The translations under genes and the position numbers were made by a program. Of a stretch of DNA of 64,000 bases, positions 30,553 through 35,894 are shown piece by piece (positions within the stretch are counted from its first letter, which is position 1; each line of letters begins with the position of its first letter). A model generated the notes under the pieces. It made no database searches. It was not told where the DNA came from and saw nothing but the letters and a program-made list of their open reading frames with translations. The DNA comes from Escherichia phage nieznany. Where the stretch lies: sequence record NC_052659.1. One strand, given 5' to 3'.

Positions 30553-31347
30553 TTGAGCAAGTTGAACACACTTGATCAATATTACACTAACCCCGCTTAT
30601 GCGGGGTTCTTATGTGATAAGATCAAAGAAATTTTTGGAGAGGAAGCTAACTACGTAGAACCATCTGCGGGAGAAGGAGCTTTCTCTTCTTGTTTTAAAA
30701 ACATAACTTCTTTTGATATTGATCCTAAGTTTGAAGATTGTATTGAGGCAGATTTTTTAGCTCAATCTGTAGAGTCTGTTGGTAGTGTAACTGCTTTTGT
30801 CGGTAATCCTCCGTTTGGAAAAAATGCTAGTCTTGCCATTAAGTTCTTTAACCATTGTGCTGAAATGTTGGATAACGAAGGTGGTATTTGTTTTATCTTG
30901 CCTCGCACATTTCAAAAAATCTTTTTTGCACACAAACTAAATCCCCACATGCATCTTCTTTACGAAGAAGAATGTCCAAAAGGATCTTTTATTCTTCATG
31001 GAGAACCTTGGGATGTTCCTTGTGTATTCCAGATATGGACTAAACGCAACGAGAAGCGTTCTCCCGTTGTTTTAGGAGAAAATCGACTATTCGTATTAGG
31101 CAACAGTAAAGACTACGACATAGCCGTTAGGAGAGCGGGAGCAAGTGCAGGTAAAGTGTTATCAGAAGAAGATTCTTTATCTGAAGCATCTACCTATTTT
31201 TTAAAAGCCTTGACTTCTGATCTTAAAACGCGTATCATTGAGGCTTACCCGTTACTTAAAGCTGAAGCTAGTAAAACTGCGGGAGTAAGAAGTTTAAGTT
31301 TAAAAGAACTTCAGTGGGTTCTGGAGAACATTAGAAAGGAGGAATAG
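30553..31347 (+). CDS. DNA methyltransferase (amino-MTase, probably N6-adenine)
   Basis: DQYYTNPAYA (motif X-like), EPSAGEGAF (AdoMet motif I) and GNPPFG (catalytic motif IV); TTG start after AAGGAGGA. Confidence 0.65.
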   Translation: MSKLNTLDQYYTNPAYAGFLCDKIKEIFGEEANYVEPSAGEGAFSSCFKNITSFDIDPKFEDCIEADFLAQSVESVGSVTAFVGNPPFGKNASLAIKFFNHCAEMLDNEGGICFILPRTFQKIFFAHKLNPHMHLLYEEECPKGSFILHGEPWDVPCVFQIWTKRNEKRSPVVLGENRLFVLGNSKDYDIAVRRAGASAGKVLSEEDSLSEASTYFLKALTSDLKTRIIEAYPLLKAEASKTAGVRSLSLKELQWVLENIRKEE

Positions 31348-34300
31348 TGAGTAAGTTTACATGGGATATTGAAGCAAACGGATTGTTGAATAATGACACT
31401 ATTGATTATTTAGCTAGTCCTTATCGTCTCAAAGACACATTTCAAATGCACTGTATTGTCTTAGAGAACCATGAAACAGGAGAAATAGTAGCTTTCCACG
31501 ATGGCCCTAAATACATTTTTGATGGTCGTCCTTATGAAGAGTCAGATGATAAATATACATATGTTCTTAAAGAATATGTGGCGCAAGATTACACACATTT
31601 TCAACTAAAAGATTTCCCAGATTTTATTAATCATGAAGGTTATTTTAAAGACAAGCCTGAATATTTGGTTGAAATGGCTGTGGCACACAACGGTATCAAC
31701 TATGACTGGTTGGCTACAAAACTGTTTTATGGATTAGATTACAGTGTTAAATATAACACGTGGGGTAAAAGCAAGGTAAAACTTATTGACTCCTTAATTT
31801 TGAGTAAAGTGTTAAACCCAGATCGAAAGATTGAGGGCAAATCAGGACATAGTTTGGCAGCACTTTCTCGAAAGGCAGGTGGGGATGTAAAAATAGATTT
31901 CCGTAAAGAGATTCCAGAAGAAGATCGATTTAAGACTTTTGCTGCGGATATGCTTTATTACTGTATCTATGACAACAAAGCCAATACGAGCGTATATAAT
32001 TACCTTATGGAAGAGTGGGGTGATTATGATAAATGGGAAGGTCCATTTGAACTTGAACAACGTGTAGCAGACATTATTACACGCCAGGAACACCGTGGGT
32101 TTGCTTTTAACATGAAGCAAGCAGAAGAGAACCTTGCTTTTTTAGATGCAGAAATGGAGCGTCTTCGTTTACTCGTTGAGCCTATTTTGCCACCTAAACC
32201 AGCAACAAAAGGTTATCTTAAGGCTTTTATTCCACCTAAGTTGCAAATTAAAAAGAACTTAGAGCCAACTAACCATATGATCAATTTTGCTAAGAAACAT
32301 GATGGTCATTTGGAAGAGAGGGATGGAGATTGGTGGTTAGTGATGTTGGGGAAAGAGTGGAAACTGCCAGTTGCAGCAGATGAGCCTTTGTGTGATCCTA
32401 ATATCCCTGCAACATTGAACGATACAACCCATATTAAAAACTGGCTTGTAGGATTAGGTTGGGTACCATCGGAATATAAAGATAAAGATTTGACTCTTAA
32501 ATCTGGCACCAAGATTAAAAAGAGTGAGGAAGAACTTCAGAAAGGTATTCGAGCTTACGTTGAGCAAACTCTATCTTCTAATTTTTGTCAAGACCGTTGT
32601 GATCATCTGGAGTGCACACCGGAAACCTTGGAAAGGAAGATTCAAGAGCGTATAGCAAAAGGTAAAGGTCGAGGTCTTAAAGTATTGACTAACCCATGTT
32701 TTACCAAAGGTCAGGAAAAAGAAATCTGTCCTAACCTGCAAGCTTTGGGTGAGAAATTTCCTTATGCTACACAGATTGTAGAATACTTAACGTATAAACA
32801 CCGTAGGAACTCTATTTTAGGTGGTGGTGCCGATTGGGAAGAAGACGAAGAAGATCAAGAATACAACAAAGGTTTCTTGGCAGCAGTTCGTGCAGATGGA
32901 CGTATACCTACGCCAGCGGCTACATGCGATGCAGCAACCTCTCGTATGAAGCATAGGTCTGTAGCCAATATTCCTCGTGTTACCTCTTTGTTTGGATGGC
33001 AGATGCGTAACCTGTTTGGTGTAGAGGTTCCTAAATACTTCCAGATTGGTTATGACTTTGATTCATTAGAGGCGAAGATTGAGTCGCATTATACGTGGAG
33101 ATATGATAATCCTGATCATGCTTACTGTAATGCACTTCTGTTAGAAAAACCAAACGATGTGCATACTATGATGGCAAAACATATTACTGATATTATTGGA
33201 CGTAAGTTTGAACGTGGTCCTGCTAAGAGCGTTAAATACGGTTGTGTACCTGTAGATAATACGGAAGTGTTAACAAGAACGGGTTGGAAGAAACGTAAAG
33301 ATCTTTTTGTAGGGGATGAAGTTTTATCTTATAATACTCACACCGCTCTTTACGAATATACCCCTATTCTTAAGCTGTGGGACTATAACGATGCAGAAGT
33401 TGTCTCTCTCGGTAACAAGTGGTTCAAAGTAGAAGTTACTAACGATCATATGTGGATTAACGCACAGAGAAAAACTATGCGATCAGATGGTAACAATGTT
33501 AAGTATATGCAAGTGGAGCGTAGATCTACAGAGGATTTAAACTCGGAGTCAAACATAATTGCAGCAGGGCGATCTGGTGTGGTGTCTACTCTAACAGTGG
33601 AAGAAGGTCGTTTCTTAGGCTGGCTTCTTTCGGATGGCTACTATAAGTGGTCTGGCAAAGCCAGAAATAAAGTAATGGGTATTACAGTCACGGTAGATCA
33701 AGATGAGAAAAAATTCTTAGAAGAAGCACGTGAGGCTGTGGGAGATATCTTCACATTTGACGAGTATGTATCTGGAACGATGCATTCATTACGTCCTAAT
33801 AAGAGTCAGTTTAGGGAATTTTTGACTAAATGTGGCGTTGAAGTGGGTCAAAATAAGCACGAAGTGGACTGGTCTACATTAATTGCTAATCAAGGTCAAG
33901 CTGTGTTGGAAGCATTCTTAGAGGCATTCTGGATGGCAGATGGTCATAAGCGTCCAAACGGCAGTCTTGTTATCCGTCAAAAGAAAGGTAAGATTAGCGA
34001 CGCTGTTTCTTTGGCTATCAATATGACAGGTAATATTGCGTATGGTTCTGTTCAAAAAGATGGCATGTTAACGTTGGCAATCAATAACGGACAAACTATT
34101 TCAGGACAGAGGTTGACAAAAGCTTTTTCACGAGTAACAGATGTATTCTGTATCTCAACCAAGAATGAATCTTTTGTTATGCGTCAGAATGGTTTTATCA
34201 CGTTGACAGGTAACTGCACGTACGGCGCTCAAGCAGACAAGGTTGCTAAAACAATTGGTAGCGATAAATACACAGGGCAACTGGTGTTCGATGCTTTCTG

Positions 34301-34916
34301 GGAAGCTGCATTCCCACTGGCGCGTCTTAAAGAACGTTTAAACGATTTCTGGGTTAAGACTGGTAAACAGTATGTTTTGGGTATTGACGGTCGTAAGGTT
34401 CCTACTCGTTCTGCTCACGCGATTCTTAACTCTCTGTTCCAAAGTGGTGGGGTTATCTGTGCTAAACGTGCAATGGTTATTTATGACGACATGATCGAAG
34501 AAGAAGGGCTAAGTGTTGACTTCTTTAAAGATGACTGGAAGAATAAAGACTTCGTGCAACAAATGATTGCATATCACGATGAAGCCCAGCTTGAAGTTTC
34601 TCGTAACCTTGTAGAATTTAAATGGTTTTCACCTGAATCATTAGGTTGGAAGAAAGTAGACGATCCTGAAGAACAAAAGAAAATTGATAAAGAATGCCTT
34701 GCTAAAGTTGAAGAATGGAAGCATAATAAGGAAAAAGAGACAGGGCAAATTTGGGCTAACATTCATGAATCTCCCAAAGGTGGATGGTTTACAGCCTATA
34801 GTCGGGCAGGTGAACTTGCTGCTTTAGCTGTTACTAAGGCTGGAGAATTTTACAATCTTAATGTTCAGCTTACTGCCGGATATGATGTGGGTAACTCCTG
34901 GGCGAGCTGCCATTAG
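31347..34916 (+). CDS. family A DNA polymerase, T7 gp5-like, containing an intein
   Basis: N-terminal exo motif WDIEANGLL (T7 gp5: SDIEANALL), C-terminal ..GNSWASCH (T7: GPNWAICH), polymerase motifs throughout; 1189 aa because of a 324-aa insertion; GTG start. Confidence 0.9.
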   Translation: MSKFTWDIEANGLLNNDTIDYLASPYRLKDTFQMHCIVLENHETGEIVAFHDGPKYIFDGRPYEESDDKYTYVLKEYVAQDYTHFQLKDFPDFINHEGYFKDKPEYLVEMAVAHNGINYDWLATKLFYGLDYSVKYNTWGKSKVKLIDSLILSKVLNPDRKIEGKSGHSLAALSRKAGGDVKIDFRKEIPEEDRFKTFAADMLYYCIYDNKANTSVYNYLMEEWGDYDKWEGPFELEQRVADIITRQEHRGFAFNMKQAEENLAFLDAEMERLRLLVEPILPPKPATKGYLKAFIPPKLQIKKNLEPTNHMINFAKKHDGHLEERDGDWWLVMLGKEWKLPVAADEPLCDPNIPATLNDTTHIKNWLVGLGWVPSEYKDKDLTLKSGTKIKKSEEELQKGIRAYVEQTLSSNFCQDRCDHLECTPETLERKIQERIAKGKGRGLKVLTNPCFTKGQEKEICPNLQALGEKFPYATQIVEYLTYKHRRNSILGGGADWEEDEEDQEYNKGFLAAVRADGRIPTPAATCDAATSRMKHRSVANIPRVTSLFGWQMRNLFGVEVPKYFQIGYDFDSLEAKIESHYTWRYDNPDHAYCNALLLEKPNDVHTMMAKHITDIIGRKFERGPAKSVKYGCVPVDNTEVLTRTGWKKRKDLFVGDEVLSYNTHTALYEYTPILKLWDYNDAEVVSLGNKWFKVEVTNDHMWINAQRKTMRSDGNNVKYMQVERRSTEDLNSESNIIAAGRSGVVSTLTVEEGRFLGWLLSDGYYKWSGKARNKVMGITVTVDQDEKKFLEEAREAVGDIFTFDEYVSGTMHSLRPNKSQFREFLTKCGVEVGQNKHEVDWSTLIANQGQAVLEAFLEAFWMADGHKRPNGSLVIRQKKGKISDAVSLAINMTGNIAYGSVQKDGMLTLAINNGQTISGQRLTKAFSRVTDVFCISTKNESFVMRQNGFITLTGNCTYGAQADKVAKTIGSDKYTGQLVFDAFWEAAFPLARLKERLNDFWVKTGKQYVLGIDGRKVPTRSAHAILNSLFQSGGVICAKRAMVIYDDMIEEEGLSVDFFKDDWKNKDFVQQMIAYHDEAQLEVSRNLVEFKWFSPESLGWKKVDDPEEQKKIDKECLAKVEEWKHNKEKETGQIWANIHESPKGGWFTAYSRAGELAALAVTKAGEFYNLNVQLTAGYDVGNSWASCH
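33243..34214 (+). mobile_element. intein with LAGLIDADG homing endonuclease domain inside the DNA polymerase
   Basis: Insertion begins with Cys after ..KSVKYG, has block B TNDH, two LAGLIDADG-like motifs (FLGWLLSDGY, FLEAFWMADGHK), ends ..ITLTGN followed by Cys; removal restores a T7-like ..KYG|CTYGAQADK.. Confidence 0.75.
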
Positions 34917-34945
34917 TCTAACATGTTGTTTATTAAGGAGGTTTT

Positions 34946-35524
34946 ATGGTTTATGATCATGGTGTTTTTGATGGAGATATTACCGTAAGATCTCCTGAAG
35001 GAGTTATGCATCCTGCTTATATGAAATGGATGGCTATGTTGGGGAGGTGTTACTCCCCTTGCCAGCAGGTAAGAGATGTTGCCTACCACGGTGTTACGGT
35101 TTGTGATGATTGGAAGTTATTCTCTAACTTCTATTCTTGGTTACAAACTTGGGACAACTGGGAAAAATTAGAACTTGACAAGGATCTTATAGGAGGGGGC
35201 GTTTACTCCCCTGCTTCTTGCTTGATGATTTCTGGAAACCTTAATAAGTTCTTAGCTTATAGGAAGAAGACGGGGCAAATGGTAGGTTGTAATTACGAAA
35301 AGGATCGCAAGAAATATAAGGCCCATATAAAAGTAGACGGTCGTATTATAACACTCGGACGTTTTGATACTGAACTTGAGGCACATCTTTGTTGGTTGAA
35401 AGCTAAAGCAGAACAACTCACAAAGTTTTTTGAAATAGAAGACAAGAGAGTTGTTCCTTATCTTAAAGCATTGTATAATGAAATGCTTGAGCACGTAGAA
35501 CAACACAAAGAGTGGACACGATAG
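34946..35524 (+). CDS. free-standing homing endonuclease-like protein with AP2-type DNA-binding domain
   Basis: C-terminal YKAHIKVDGRIITLGRFDTELEAHLCW resembles AP2 domains; N-terminal W..M..RC..Y.GVTVC..W pattern recurs in phage homing endonuclease families. Confidence 0.4.
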   Translation: MVYDHGVFDGDITVRSPEGVMHPAYMKWMAMLGRCYSPCQQVRDVAYHGVTVCDDWKLFSNFYSWLQTWDNWEKLELDKDLIGGGVYSPASCLMISGNLNKFLAYRKKTGQMVGCNYEKDRKKYKAHIKVDGRIITLGRFDTELEAHLCWLKAKAEQLTKFFEIEDKRVVPYLKALYNEMLEHVEQHKEWTR

Positions 35525-35727
35525 GAGGAGATATGAGTTACGATTTAGATTACTTTGGACAGCCTTACCTGCCAGACGAATTCGCAGATGAGGCGGAGGG
35601 TCGTGAATGGGATGATGGGGATATCCGTTGTTGGTCTTGTGGTAAAGATATGTCCTATGAACAACATATGCACAATGATGGTTTCTGCATACATTGTTAT
35701 AATGAAATTGATCTGGAGGAAGATTAA
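35512..35727 (+). CDS. small zinc-ribbon protein (71 aa)
   Basis: CWSCG..CIHCY; AGGAGGAG SD. Confidence 0.4.
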   Translation: MDTIGGDMSYDLDYFGQPYLPDEFADEAEGREWDDGDIRCWSCGKDMSYEQHMHNDGFCIHCYNEIDLEED

Positions 35728-35894
35728 TGGGAAATGGTATCATGATTTGCTATAAAATTGTGCGTATTGTCGGAGACGAAGTTACCACTCGGTATTTTAT
35801 GATAGAGTCTCAAGCCGATGAGGTTTACAATGACTGGCTTGAAAAAGGTGGATACGATTTTGTATCTAAAGAAACTTTCCGTTTAGAAGTATAA
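35727..35894 (+). CDS. small hypothetical protein (55 aa)
   Basis: ATG overlaps upstream stop (TAATG); stop precedes the SD of the next gene; below ORF-track cut-off. Confidence 0.35.
   Translation: MGNGIMICYKIVRIVGDEVTTRYFMIESQADEVYNDWLEKGGYDFVSKETFRLEV

Follow-up and report, generated by a model that had tools for sequence, protein, structure and literature searches.

An intein with a LAGLIDADG endonuclease domain in motif B of the DNA polymerase of Escherichia phage nieznany

The DNA polymerase gene of Escherichia phage nieznany (sequence record NC_052659.1) encodes a protein of 1189 amino acids (aa), whereas orthologues in related phages have 865 aa. What is the additional segment, how did it come to lie in a conserved motif of the enzyme, and how might a functional polymerase be made from the interrupted gene? 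All positions given below are those of the window, that is, the whole stretch of 64,000 nucleotides that was analysed. Comparison of polymerase genes identifies the window as part of a phAPEC8-like coliphage (Phapecoctavirus, subfamily Stephanstirmvirinae, the phAPEC8-like myophages): the gene is 99.2% identical in DNA to that of Escherichia phage nepoznato and 98.6% to that of phage ukendt, both Phapecoctavirus. The nepoznato homologue of the precursor (nepoznato_230, 99.2% identical) is annotated as 'putative DNA polymerase/3'-5' exonuclease domain'. A preliminary description, made from the letters of the sequence, had proposed that a 324-aa LAGLIDADG intein occupies 33243-34214. Exact absence of the segment from orthologues, continuity of the polymerase profile across the empty site, and fold matches bear this out, and we consider it very probable that the insert is a functional, recently mobile intein carrying a LAGLIDADG homing endonuclease inside polymerase motif B.

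A precise, in-frame insertion in motif B

A total of 126 phage records match the polymerase gene. In most, the match is split in two and takes in about 72% of the gene, and its span is shorter by exactly 972 base pairs (bp); in ESCO13, for example, the span is 2598 bp, compared with 3570 bp in the window. ESCO13, phAPEC8 and many others, at approximately 95% DNA identity, lack precisely these 972 bp (324 aa), and the difference is exact to the base. In the protein alignment the window, nepoznato and phiWec187 read ..ERGPAKSVKYG[324 aa]CTYGAQADK.., where ESCO13 reads ..ERSPAKSVKYG-ITYGAQADK... The corresponding DNA junctions (marked by a slash) are TAC GGT / TGT GTA .. GGT AAC / TGC ACG TAC, and the empty site is TAC GGG / ATC ACT TAT; the insertion point therefore falls within motif B of family A polymerases, K-x-x-x-Y-G / x-x-Y-G. 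The Pfam profile DNA_pol_A matches the ESCO13 polymerase without a break (51.7 bits over residues 504-764, which exceeds the cut-off); in the window precursor the match scores 30.9 bits and ends at residue 634, two residues into the insert.

These comparisons fix the insertion and its boundaries, and they also qualify how the gene had been described. The excess had been put at about 325 aa over T7 gp5, which is the wrong comparator: the 324-aa excess is relative to the 865-aa orthologues, and T7 gp5 has 704 aa, so that the precursor would exceed it by approximately 485 aa. The term 'T7-like' holds in the loose sense that the enzyme is a phage family A polymerase, and in no closer sense. Removal of the segment does restore a contiguous motif (..AKSVKYG/CTYGAQADK), but the product is not identical to the close intein-less relatives, which have Ile, not Cys, at the first position after the insert (+1).

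Within its boundaries the insert consists of 324 stop-free codons that continue the polymerase frame and have no internal start context. The protein begins CVPVDN, ends ITLTGN and is followed by Cys; at greater length it runs CVPVDNTEVLTRTGW...FVMRQNGFITLTGN, then Cys (TGC) and TYGAQADK. Given a stop trinucleotide frequency of 0.057 in the window, the chance of an open frame of 324 codons is P ~5e-9. The strain on which two carriers of the insert, nepoznato and ukendt, were isolated is E. coli MG1655; as they propagate on E. coli, the interrupted polymerase must be made functional.

The features by which inteins are recognised are present: Cys at position 1, a block B of the form TxxH, Asn324 at the end, Cys at +1, precise in-frame insertion and a Hint fold. 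A departure is seen at the penultimate His, a common but not strictly defining residue, in place of which there is Gly323. Two LAGLIDADG motifs, each with an acidic residue before Gly, and an alpha-beta fold mark the endonuclease. All of the landmarks named in the preliminary description (the initial Cys, TxxH as T66-N-D-H69, two LAGLIDADG-like motifs, and the terminal Asn followed by Cys) were recovered in the segment.

The AlphaFold2 model of the intein, built on eight sequences, has a mean predicted local distance difference test score of 82.6 and a predicted template modelling (TM) score of 0.84. The Hint domain is made up of residues 1 to ~109 and ~283-324, with the central endonuclease domain between them. 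The best matches found by Foldseek in the PDB are all endonuclease-containing inteins, namely TliVMA (E=2e-14), PhoVMA, PI-SceI, PI-PfuI and PI-PkoII, with query-normalised TM-scores of 0.60-0.67; the central domain matches I-DmoI and I-Tsp061I at E ~4e-4 to 2e-3. These archaeal and yeast inteins share the two-domain architecture and the fold with the window intein, but differ in that they are only 9-16% identical, are larger, with extra DNA-recognition regions, and have a penultimate His and a block F of the Asp type. At the level of sequence the best PDB match is PI-PkoII (E=0.0012, residues 122-281). A profile of the splicing domain finds a bacterial intein-like domain and the Spl DnaX mini-intein at ~2.5e-5 and the AceL NrdHF intein at 1e-3, with weaker matches to the gp41-1, NrdJ-1 and RecA inteins. 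Coordinates of the parts are collected in Table 1.

Table 1. Features of the interrupted polymerase gene, with positions in the window and the basis of each assignment
Feature	Position	Strand	Basis
Polymerase precursor open reading frame (ORF): intein-interrupted family A DNA polymerase that includes a 3'-5' exonuclease region; GTG start, 1189 aa	31347..34916	+	ORF list; Pfam DNA_pol_A
N-extein, 632 aa, ending ..RGPAKSVKYG in motif B	31347..33242	+	Alignment with the intein-less ESCO13 polymerase; junction codons
Upstream co-conversion tract	33015..33242	+	100% identical to phiWec187 (background 60-85%); 69-84% to ESCO13 (background 95-100%)
Empty 'site a' (..ESHY/TWRY..), +1 residue Thr; a 245-aa intein lies here in other Stephanstirmvirinae	33093..33095	+	Alignment
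Intein, 324 aa: LAGLIDADG homing endonuclease domain set within a Hint splicing domain	33243..34214	+	972-bp presence/absence polymorphism; AlphaFold2 and Foldseek; PI-PkoII match; Hint profile match
Cys1 (block A), putative N-terminal splice-junction nucleophile	33243..33245	+	Family alignment
Block B core T66-N-D-H69-M-W71 (Thr B:7, His B:10, Trp B:12)	33438..33455	+	Sequence; family alignment
First LAGLIDADG motif (RFLGWLLSDGYY), predicted catalytic Asp131; FLGWLLSDGYY, residues 124-134	33609..33644	+	Sequence; family alignment
Second LAGLIDADG motif (LEAFLEAFWMADGHK), predicted catalytic Asp233; LEAFWMADGH, residues 226-235	33906..33950	+	Sequence; weak Pfam LAGLIDADG_3 match
Cys303, located 21 residues ahead of the terminal Asn; placed at F:4 (block F)	34149..34151	+	Spacing and alignment, not coordinates
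Block G end: Thr322 (G:5), Gly323 (G:6, usually His), Asn324 (G:7)	34206..34214	+	Sequence; family alignment
Cys+1 (TGC), where the C-extein begins; intein-less alleles of Stephanstirmvirinae have Ile (ATC/ATT)	34215..34217	+	Alignment
Downstream co-conversion tract, 20 bp	34215..34234	+	Identical to phiWec187; differs from ESCO13 at the +1 codon (TGC vs ATC) and at 34220, 34223, 34226 and 34229
C-extein, 233 aa and stop, beginning CTYGAQADK (remainder of motif B)	34215..34916	+	ORF list; alignment

A family of inteins with penultimate glycine

The preliminary description had flagged the penultimate Gly as atypical. The residue is real, and the final 42 residues of the intein contain no His at all (GQTISGQRLTKAFSRVTDVFCISTKNESFVMRQNGFITLTGN); whether it is an oddity depends on what relatives carry. 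A word-indexed homologue search yielded only 7 proteins, and an exhaustive search of 1.84 billion cluster representatives was needed for a view of the family. This search found 1764 representatives at E<=1e-3, with 609 at <=1e-10, and the 153 best relatives (metagenomic proteins) were aligned with the window intein to give 154 sequences.

Cys1 is present in 149 of the 154 and is never substituted, the other five being alignment gaps in free-standing or truncated proteins. Constancy extends to block B (Thr B:7 in 150, His B:10 in 150, Trp B:12 in 152), to the Cys located 21 residues before the end (150) and to block G, with Thr G:5 in 146, Gly G:6 in 149 and Asn G:7 in 149; the +1 residue is Cys in 68 members, Ser in 42 and Thr in 41. 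The complete signature C1/T/H/W/C/T/G/N/[CST] occurs in 141 of 154. In the endonuclease domain, Asp or Glu fills the first catalytic column in 126 of the 127 members that have the first LAGLIDADG motif, and the second in 152 of 154, with the next Gly present in every sequence. Judged from this alignment, the penultimate Gly is a hallmark of the family to which the intein belongs and no anomaly. There is also an experimental precedent: Kelley et al. (2016) reported that the penultimate His is poorly conserved in mycobacteriophage inteins, and that the Bethlehem RDF intein, which has a penultimate Gly, splices completely, with the substitution G316H slowing splicing (PMC5050341).

The intein of the mycobacteriophage Bethlehem RDF (a phosphoesterase), 317 aa in length, is the closest characterised relative of the window intein (BLASTP, E=5e-6). 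The two share Cys1, the TxxH block (..ANHRV.. in Bethlehem), ..VWC.., a Cys 21 residues before the end, the arrangement ..C..(17)..TGN and a LAGLIDADG domain; the Bethlehem intein differs in host protein and phage group, in having Val at B:12 and Ser at +1 (..HLTGN/S), and in being only ~26% identical.

Among the 154 aligned sequences 66, the window intein included, lie at exactly this motif B site, 20 lie one residue earlier, a few are found elsewhere in the polymerase and 64 fall outside the recognised site patterns; those of the 64 that were scanned are in other proteins (for example a D5-like primase-helicase) or in motif B of other family A polymerases. In Pseudomonas phages KIL1-KIL5 a family member of 331 aa is inserted in motif B four residues ahead of the window's site (..GKT/C..TGN/CNYASVYNAG; KIL1 is L005 737-3844). 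Their polymerase coding sequence is given in GenBank as a two-piece join, so the insert was recognised there, although the feature table does not label it as an intein.

Two relatives allow selection on the intein to be gauged. P0001 and P0002, 72% and 56% identical respectively, are both encoded on metagenomic phage contigs. Comparison with P0001 gave proportions of nonsynonymous and synonymous differences (pN and pS) of 0.20 and 0.80; pS is saturated at this level, and we therefore report pN against pS instead of dN/dS. By domain, pN is 0.19 for the endonuclease, 0.245 for the N-terminal splicing domain and 0.136 for the 42-residue C-terminal splicing segment. This pattern of purifying selection indicates that the splicing and endonuclease functions both appear to be maintained.

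Free-standing homologues of ~345-357 aa are found in Vibrio phages VPMCC14 (L006 2474-3544) and 249E41-1 (L009 2483-3550) and as the metagenomic proteins P0004 and P0005. They lack Cys1, the Thr and His of block B, Cys303 (Ser or Asp occupies this position in the four free-standing derivatives examined) and the terminal Gly-Asn, and keep the Trp and both LAGLIDADG motifs. The joint loss ties the missing residues, Cys303 included, to splicing. In the two Vibrio phages the free-standing genes adjoin polymerase genes annotated as several fragments, which suggests conversion of an intein to a free-standing endonuclease accompanied by splitting of the gene.

Other self-splicing elements occur in the polymerase genes of this clade. 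Those encoding P0001 and P0002 also hold group I introns (Rfam RF00028, 82.7 and 55.5 bits; L034 1634-1965 and L035 2581-2939), one at motif A (..GYDFASL/..) and one at motif C (..MIAYH/..). Together with the two intein sites, this means that motifs A, B and C each host or adjoin a self-splicing element in some member of the clade. Two very long metagenomic relatives, P0042 (1736 aa) and P0046 (2211 aa), contain several matched stretches; P0042 is a family A polymerase with an Intein_splicing/HNH_3 region as well as a LAGLIDADG intein of the window's family, and thus has multiple inteins of different types.

Recent transfer and co-conversion

If the intein is mobile, then its movement may have left a trace in the flanking polymerase gene. 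From 33015 to 34234, a block made up of the intein, 228 bp upstream and 20 bp downstream, the window differs from the Justusliebigvirus phiWec187 at a single base (34120), whereas elsewhere the two polymerase genes are 60-85% identical. Across the upstream flank the identity of the window to ESCO13 drops (Table 1), and so does that of phiWec187 to its close relative PaulScherrer. Since identity falls in both backgrounds the block is foreign to both genera, and constitutes a co-conversion footprint. The tract supplies the Cys+1 codon in place of Ile; in more distant intein-less polymerases of the clade the +1 position holds I, A, L or a native C (KYG/CSYNAQ). In all, ten records (eight genomes, two genera) hold the intein at an amino acid identity of at least 99.7%. 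From these sequence comparisons the intein is judged to have been mobile recently, between two phage genera.

Four of the records that hold the intein at 99.7% identity (MG065639, MG065645, MG065656 and MG065689; unannotated, ~146 kb) are labelled 'Campylobacter phage' with C. jejuni as host. Their polymerase genes are 86% identical to that of the window over ~3 kb, the same level as in the E. coli phage phiWec187, and the host label looks doubtful.

A second intein occupies a nearby site in related phages. Site a, next to motif A and 50 codons upstream of the motif B site, is empty in the window; in phi92, ESCO5, PaulScherrer (MZ501100, from the BASEL collection; L004 3004-3738), KP13-16 and ~30 other records, with loci L008 and L013 among them, it holds an intein of 245 aa (..ESHY/CWRY..). 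The two inteins have in common the polymerase gene, the phage subfamily, 32-38% identity and the signature CVP.D.., TxDHRW, VWC and ITITGN/C, and are distinguished by their sites and by the lack of the first LAGLIDADG motif in the shorter one. Related inteins of 245-261 aa also lack this motif and are nonetheless widespread. No record examined was seen to hold both inteins together. The co-conversion tract of the 324-aa intein spans site a, and phiWec187, which is 97-100% identical to PaulScherrer outside the tract, has the 324-aa intein and lacks the 245-aa one. The alignment is consistent with the idea that in phiWec187 the 324-aa intein may have displaced the 245-aa intein by a single repair event.

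The surroundings of the polymerase gene hold a further candidate mobile element. Upstream, the gene is preceded by a primase/helicase gene, a small ORF and an adenine methyltransferase gene. Downstream, 30 bp past the polymerase stop, lies a gene for an HNH homing-endonuclease-like protein of 192 aa (34946-35524, + strand; PHROG 953, E=8e-67). It is not at this position in nepoznato or ESCO13, the closest relatives for the polymerase, and SF1-1, UP17 and 536P1 carry a version that is only ~87% identical. The gene looks like a second, independent mobile element beside the polymerase gene.

Splicing route and alternative readings

How might a functional polymerase be produced? We propose that the 1189-aa precursor is translated, and that the Hint domain would then excise the 324-aa intein and join ..KYG to CTYG.., leaving an 865-aa polymerase with an intact motif B. 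The ligated exteins would carry the junction peptide SVKYGCTYGAQADK; the unspliced polymerase would be of 135 kDa. Along a class 1 route Cys1 would form a thioester, the N-extein would be transferred to Cys+1, Asn324 would cyclise and an S-N shift would restore the peptide bond, probably with family-specific assistance from Cys303 at F:4 (usually Asp) and from Thr322-Gly323 (usually x-His). The endonuclease domain, with Asp131 and Asp233, would be expected to cut intein-less alleles in mixed infections at a presumed target around AAATCTGTTAAATACGGG/ATCACTTATGGTGCACAAGC, and repair of the break would copy in the intein together with flanking extein DNA, bringing with it the Cys+1 codon needed for splicing.

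Several observations weigh against this account, or against parts of it. The curated profiles are below cut-off or silent: Pfam Hint reaches 12.8 bits (E=0.09), under its cut-off of 29.7, LAGLIDADG_3 scores 18.6 bits against a gathering cut-off of 22.5 (E=0.0023), and Intein_splicing, the NCBIfam intein models and PHROGs give no meaningful match to the intein. Ordinary homologous recombination, with no homing driven by an endonuclease, would leave a footprint similar to that observed. The usual class 1 helpers, Asp F:4, the block F His and His G:6, are all absent, and the triplet that marks class 3 inteins (WCT: W71, C303 and T322) is complete, which makes the class 1 assignment uncertain. Splicing and cleavage by the intein are, moreover, deduced from sequence and a structural model.

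A reading in which the segment is not an intein at all, being instead a native polymerase subdomain, an RNA-level intron or a free-standing endonuclease gene, could draw on the length of the polymerase, which is considerable (865 aa) even without the segment, and on the silence of the standard intein profiles. We give it practically no credence. Orthologues ~95% identical in DNA lack exactly 972 bp, and on the evidence of these intein-less orthologues we rejected a native subdomain; the segment is in frame, with no stop or internal start context; and its fold is that of Hint plus LAGLIDADG. The RNA intron was rejected by a search of 32800-35800 against Rfam, which returned no RNA family match, group I introns included, although such introns are readily found in the polymerase genes of relatives. 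It is also improbable, if less decidedly so, that the intein splices with an inactive endonuclease and owes its patchy spread and its copies in two genera to homologous recombination between co-infecting phages. In its favour, genomes in this phage group are mosaics and a 1.2-kb block can be moved by recombination with no other aid, the curated LAGLIDADG profiles match weakly, and the related 245-261-aa inteins are widespread despite loss of the first motif. However, the intein has kept the two catalytic acidic residues, which its family conserves, the pN of the endonuclease is the lower of the two large domains (with pS saturated), and the moved DNA is built around the intein, with short flanks of unequal length (228 and 20 bp), the pattern that repair of a double-strand break at the insertion site predicts.

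The question of which Cys would initiate splicing is more evenly poised. WCT stands for Trp B:12, Cys F:4 and Thr G:5 and defines class 3 inteins, in which splicing is initiated by the block F Cys and position 1 usually has no nucleophile (PMC2807308, PMC5222942). In the window intein W71 lies two residues after His69, T322 two before Asn324, and C303 21 before Asn324; given His B:10 and Asn G:7, positions B:12 and G:5 are fixed by definition, and F:4 is assigned by spacing and alignment. The class 3 inteins MP-Be DnaB, MP-Catera gp206 and Msm DnaB-1 share with it Trp B:12, a Cys ~21 residues before Asn, Thr G:5, the association with phages and a LAGLIDADG domain. The spacing between Cys and Asn is the same in MP-Be DnaB (C320/N341; PMC2807308), in Msm DnaB-1 (118/139; PMC5222942) and in Catera gp206. 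The window family differs from them in its invariant Cys1 and Thr B:7, in Gly rather than His at G:6 and in a frequent Cys+1, and shows no special sequence affinity to them. Of the features expected of class 3, a nucleophile-free position 1 is contradicted by Cys1, and a Ser or Thr at +1, which is usual and not absolute, by Cys+1.

We lean towards a class 1 route initiated by Cys1, with unusual helpers, because Cys1 is invariant and because the Bethlehem RDF intein resembles the family more closely than do Catera gp206 and MsmDnaB1. The class 1 residues Cys1, Thr B:7 and His B:10 are present and invariant, and presumably serve in catalysis. The splicing-domain profile of the family matches the Bethlehem RDF intein over its full length (hhalign, 97.7%, E=2.4e-12), Catera gp206 in the N-terminal half only (E=3.2e-6) and MsmDnaB1 at E=2.2, although the domain is short for a firm phylogenetic statement. 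Absence of the usual helpers has parallels: in the AceL NrdHF intein both C-terminal His residues are missing, and it still splices in a matter of minutes (PMC7891396), and Cys at F:4 occurs in a polyphyletic set of class 1 inteins (PMC3196547).

A less probable reading, which nonetheless deserves serious consideration, is that the intein is real but follows a class 3 route or a class 1/class 3 hybrid one: Cys303 would attack the N-terminal junction, a branched thioester would form at block F and the N-extein would pass to Cys+1, with Cys1 dispensable or merely the first station of a thiol relay. The near-invariance of the triplet (W, C and T in 152, 150 and 146 of 154) speaks for it, as do a high conservation of Thr G:5, reported for class 3 only (PMC7891396), the Ser or Thr found at +1 in 54% of the family, as in class 3 inteins, and the loss of Cys303 along with other splicing residues in the free-standing derivatives. 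Moreover, MP-Catera gp206, called class 3 (PMC3196547), appears to begin with Ser, so that an N-terminal nucleophile is no bar to class 3. Against this, Cys1 is never substituted among relatives only 25-40% identical, a constancy hard to reconcile with a dispensable residue, and Cys1 is absent from canonical class 3 inteins; Thr B:7 is invariant here, whereas MP-Be DnaB does not need it (PMC2807308); and the family profile is nearer to the Bethlehem RDF intein, class 1 according to Kelley et al., than to class 3 inteins. As noted, Cys F:4 is known among class 1 inteins, and the operational definition of class 3 demands that there be no Cys at position 1 (PMC7891396). Ser1 or Cys1 was found in only 3 of 37 WCT inteins (Tori et al., PMC2807308). 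The view that such inteins can be class 3 draws on indirect wording (PMC3196547, PMC5222942) and on our reading of Catera gp206.

The combination of an invariant Cys1 with a full WCT triplet, Gly at G:6 and no C-terminal His raises the thought that the family is a natural class 1/class 3 hybrid, which we put forward tentatively and think rather unlikely. It could take the form of a thioester relay from Cys1 to the block F Cys, or of a living intermediate in the passage from class 1 to class 3 in phages. Class 3 is said by Tori and Perler to have diverged from a phage class 1 intein, and WCT inteins with Ser1 or Cys1 were reportedly tested by the same authors in 2011 (J Bacteriol 193:2035). An independent, convergent origin of class 3 was argued by Beyer et al. 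(2020), as a WCT graft onto a class 1 intein fails (PMC7664689).

LAGLIDADG inteins in phage replication genes are well known, and the window intein is an unannotated addition to them whose large family is apparently undescribed. None of the carrier records examined annotates the 324-aa intein: in nepoznato, ukendt, AV126, phiWec187 and the window phage the polymerase was deposited as a long 'DNA polymerase' or a 'hypothetical protein'. The 245-aa intein is annotated as such in the PaulScherrer and SD2 records. The paper on the BASEL collection only mentions that inteins were annotated (PMC8594841), and a literature search found no description of an intein in the polymerases of KIL1, phi92, phAPEC8 or nepoznato. 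According to a 2024 paper, inteins had yet to be reported from coliphages (PMC11162368); contrary to this statement, the GenBank records of BASEL phages annotate a related intein.

The intein would offer a clear-cut and datable example of homing between phage genera, in which the tract imports the Cys+1 that splicing needs. Its Cys at both junctions and freedom from a His requirement may be of interest for protein engineering. Beyond this, interest attaches to the coexistence of Cys1 with the class 3 triplet, to the interplay of two related inteins lying 165 bp from one another and to the source, an easily grown E. coli phage, with which the origin of class 3 inteins could be approached by experiment. 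The hybrid reading, if true, would bear on the dispute as to whether class 3 arose by divergence or by convergence.

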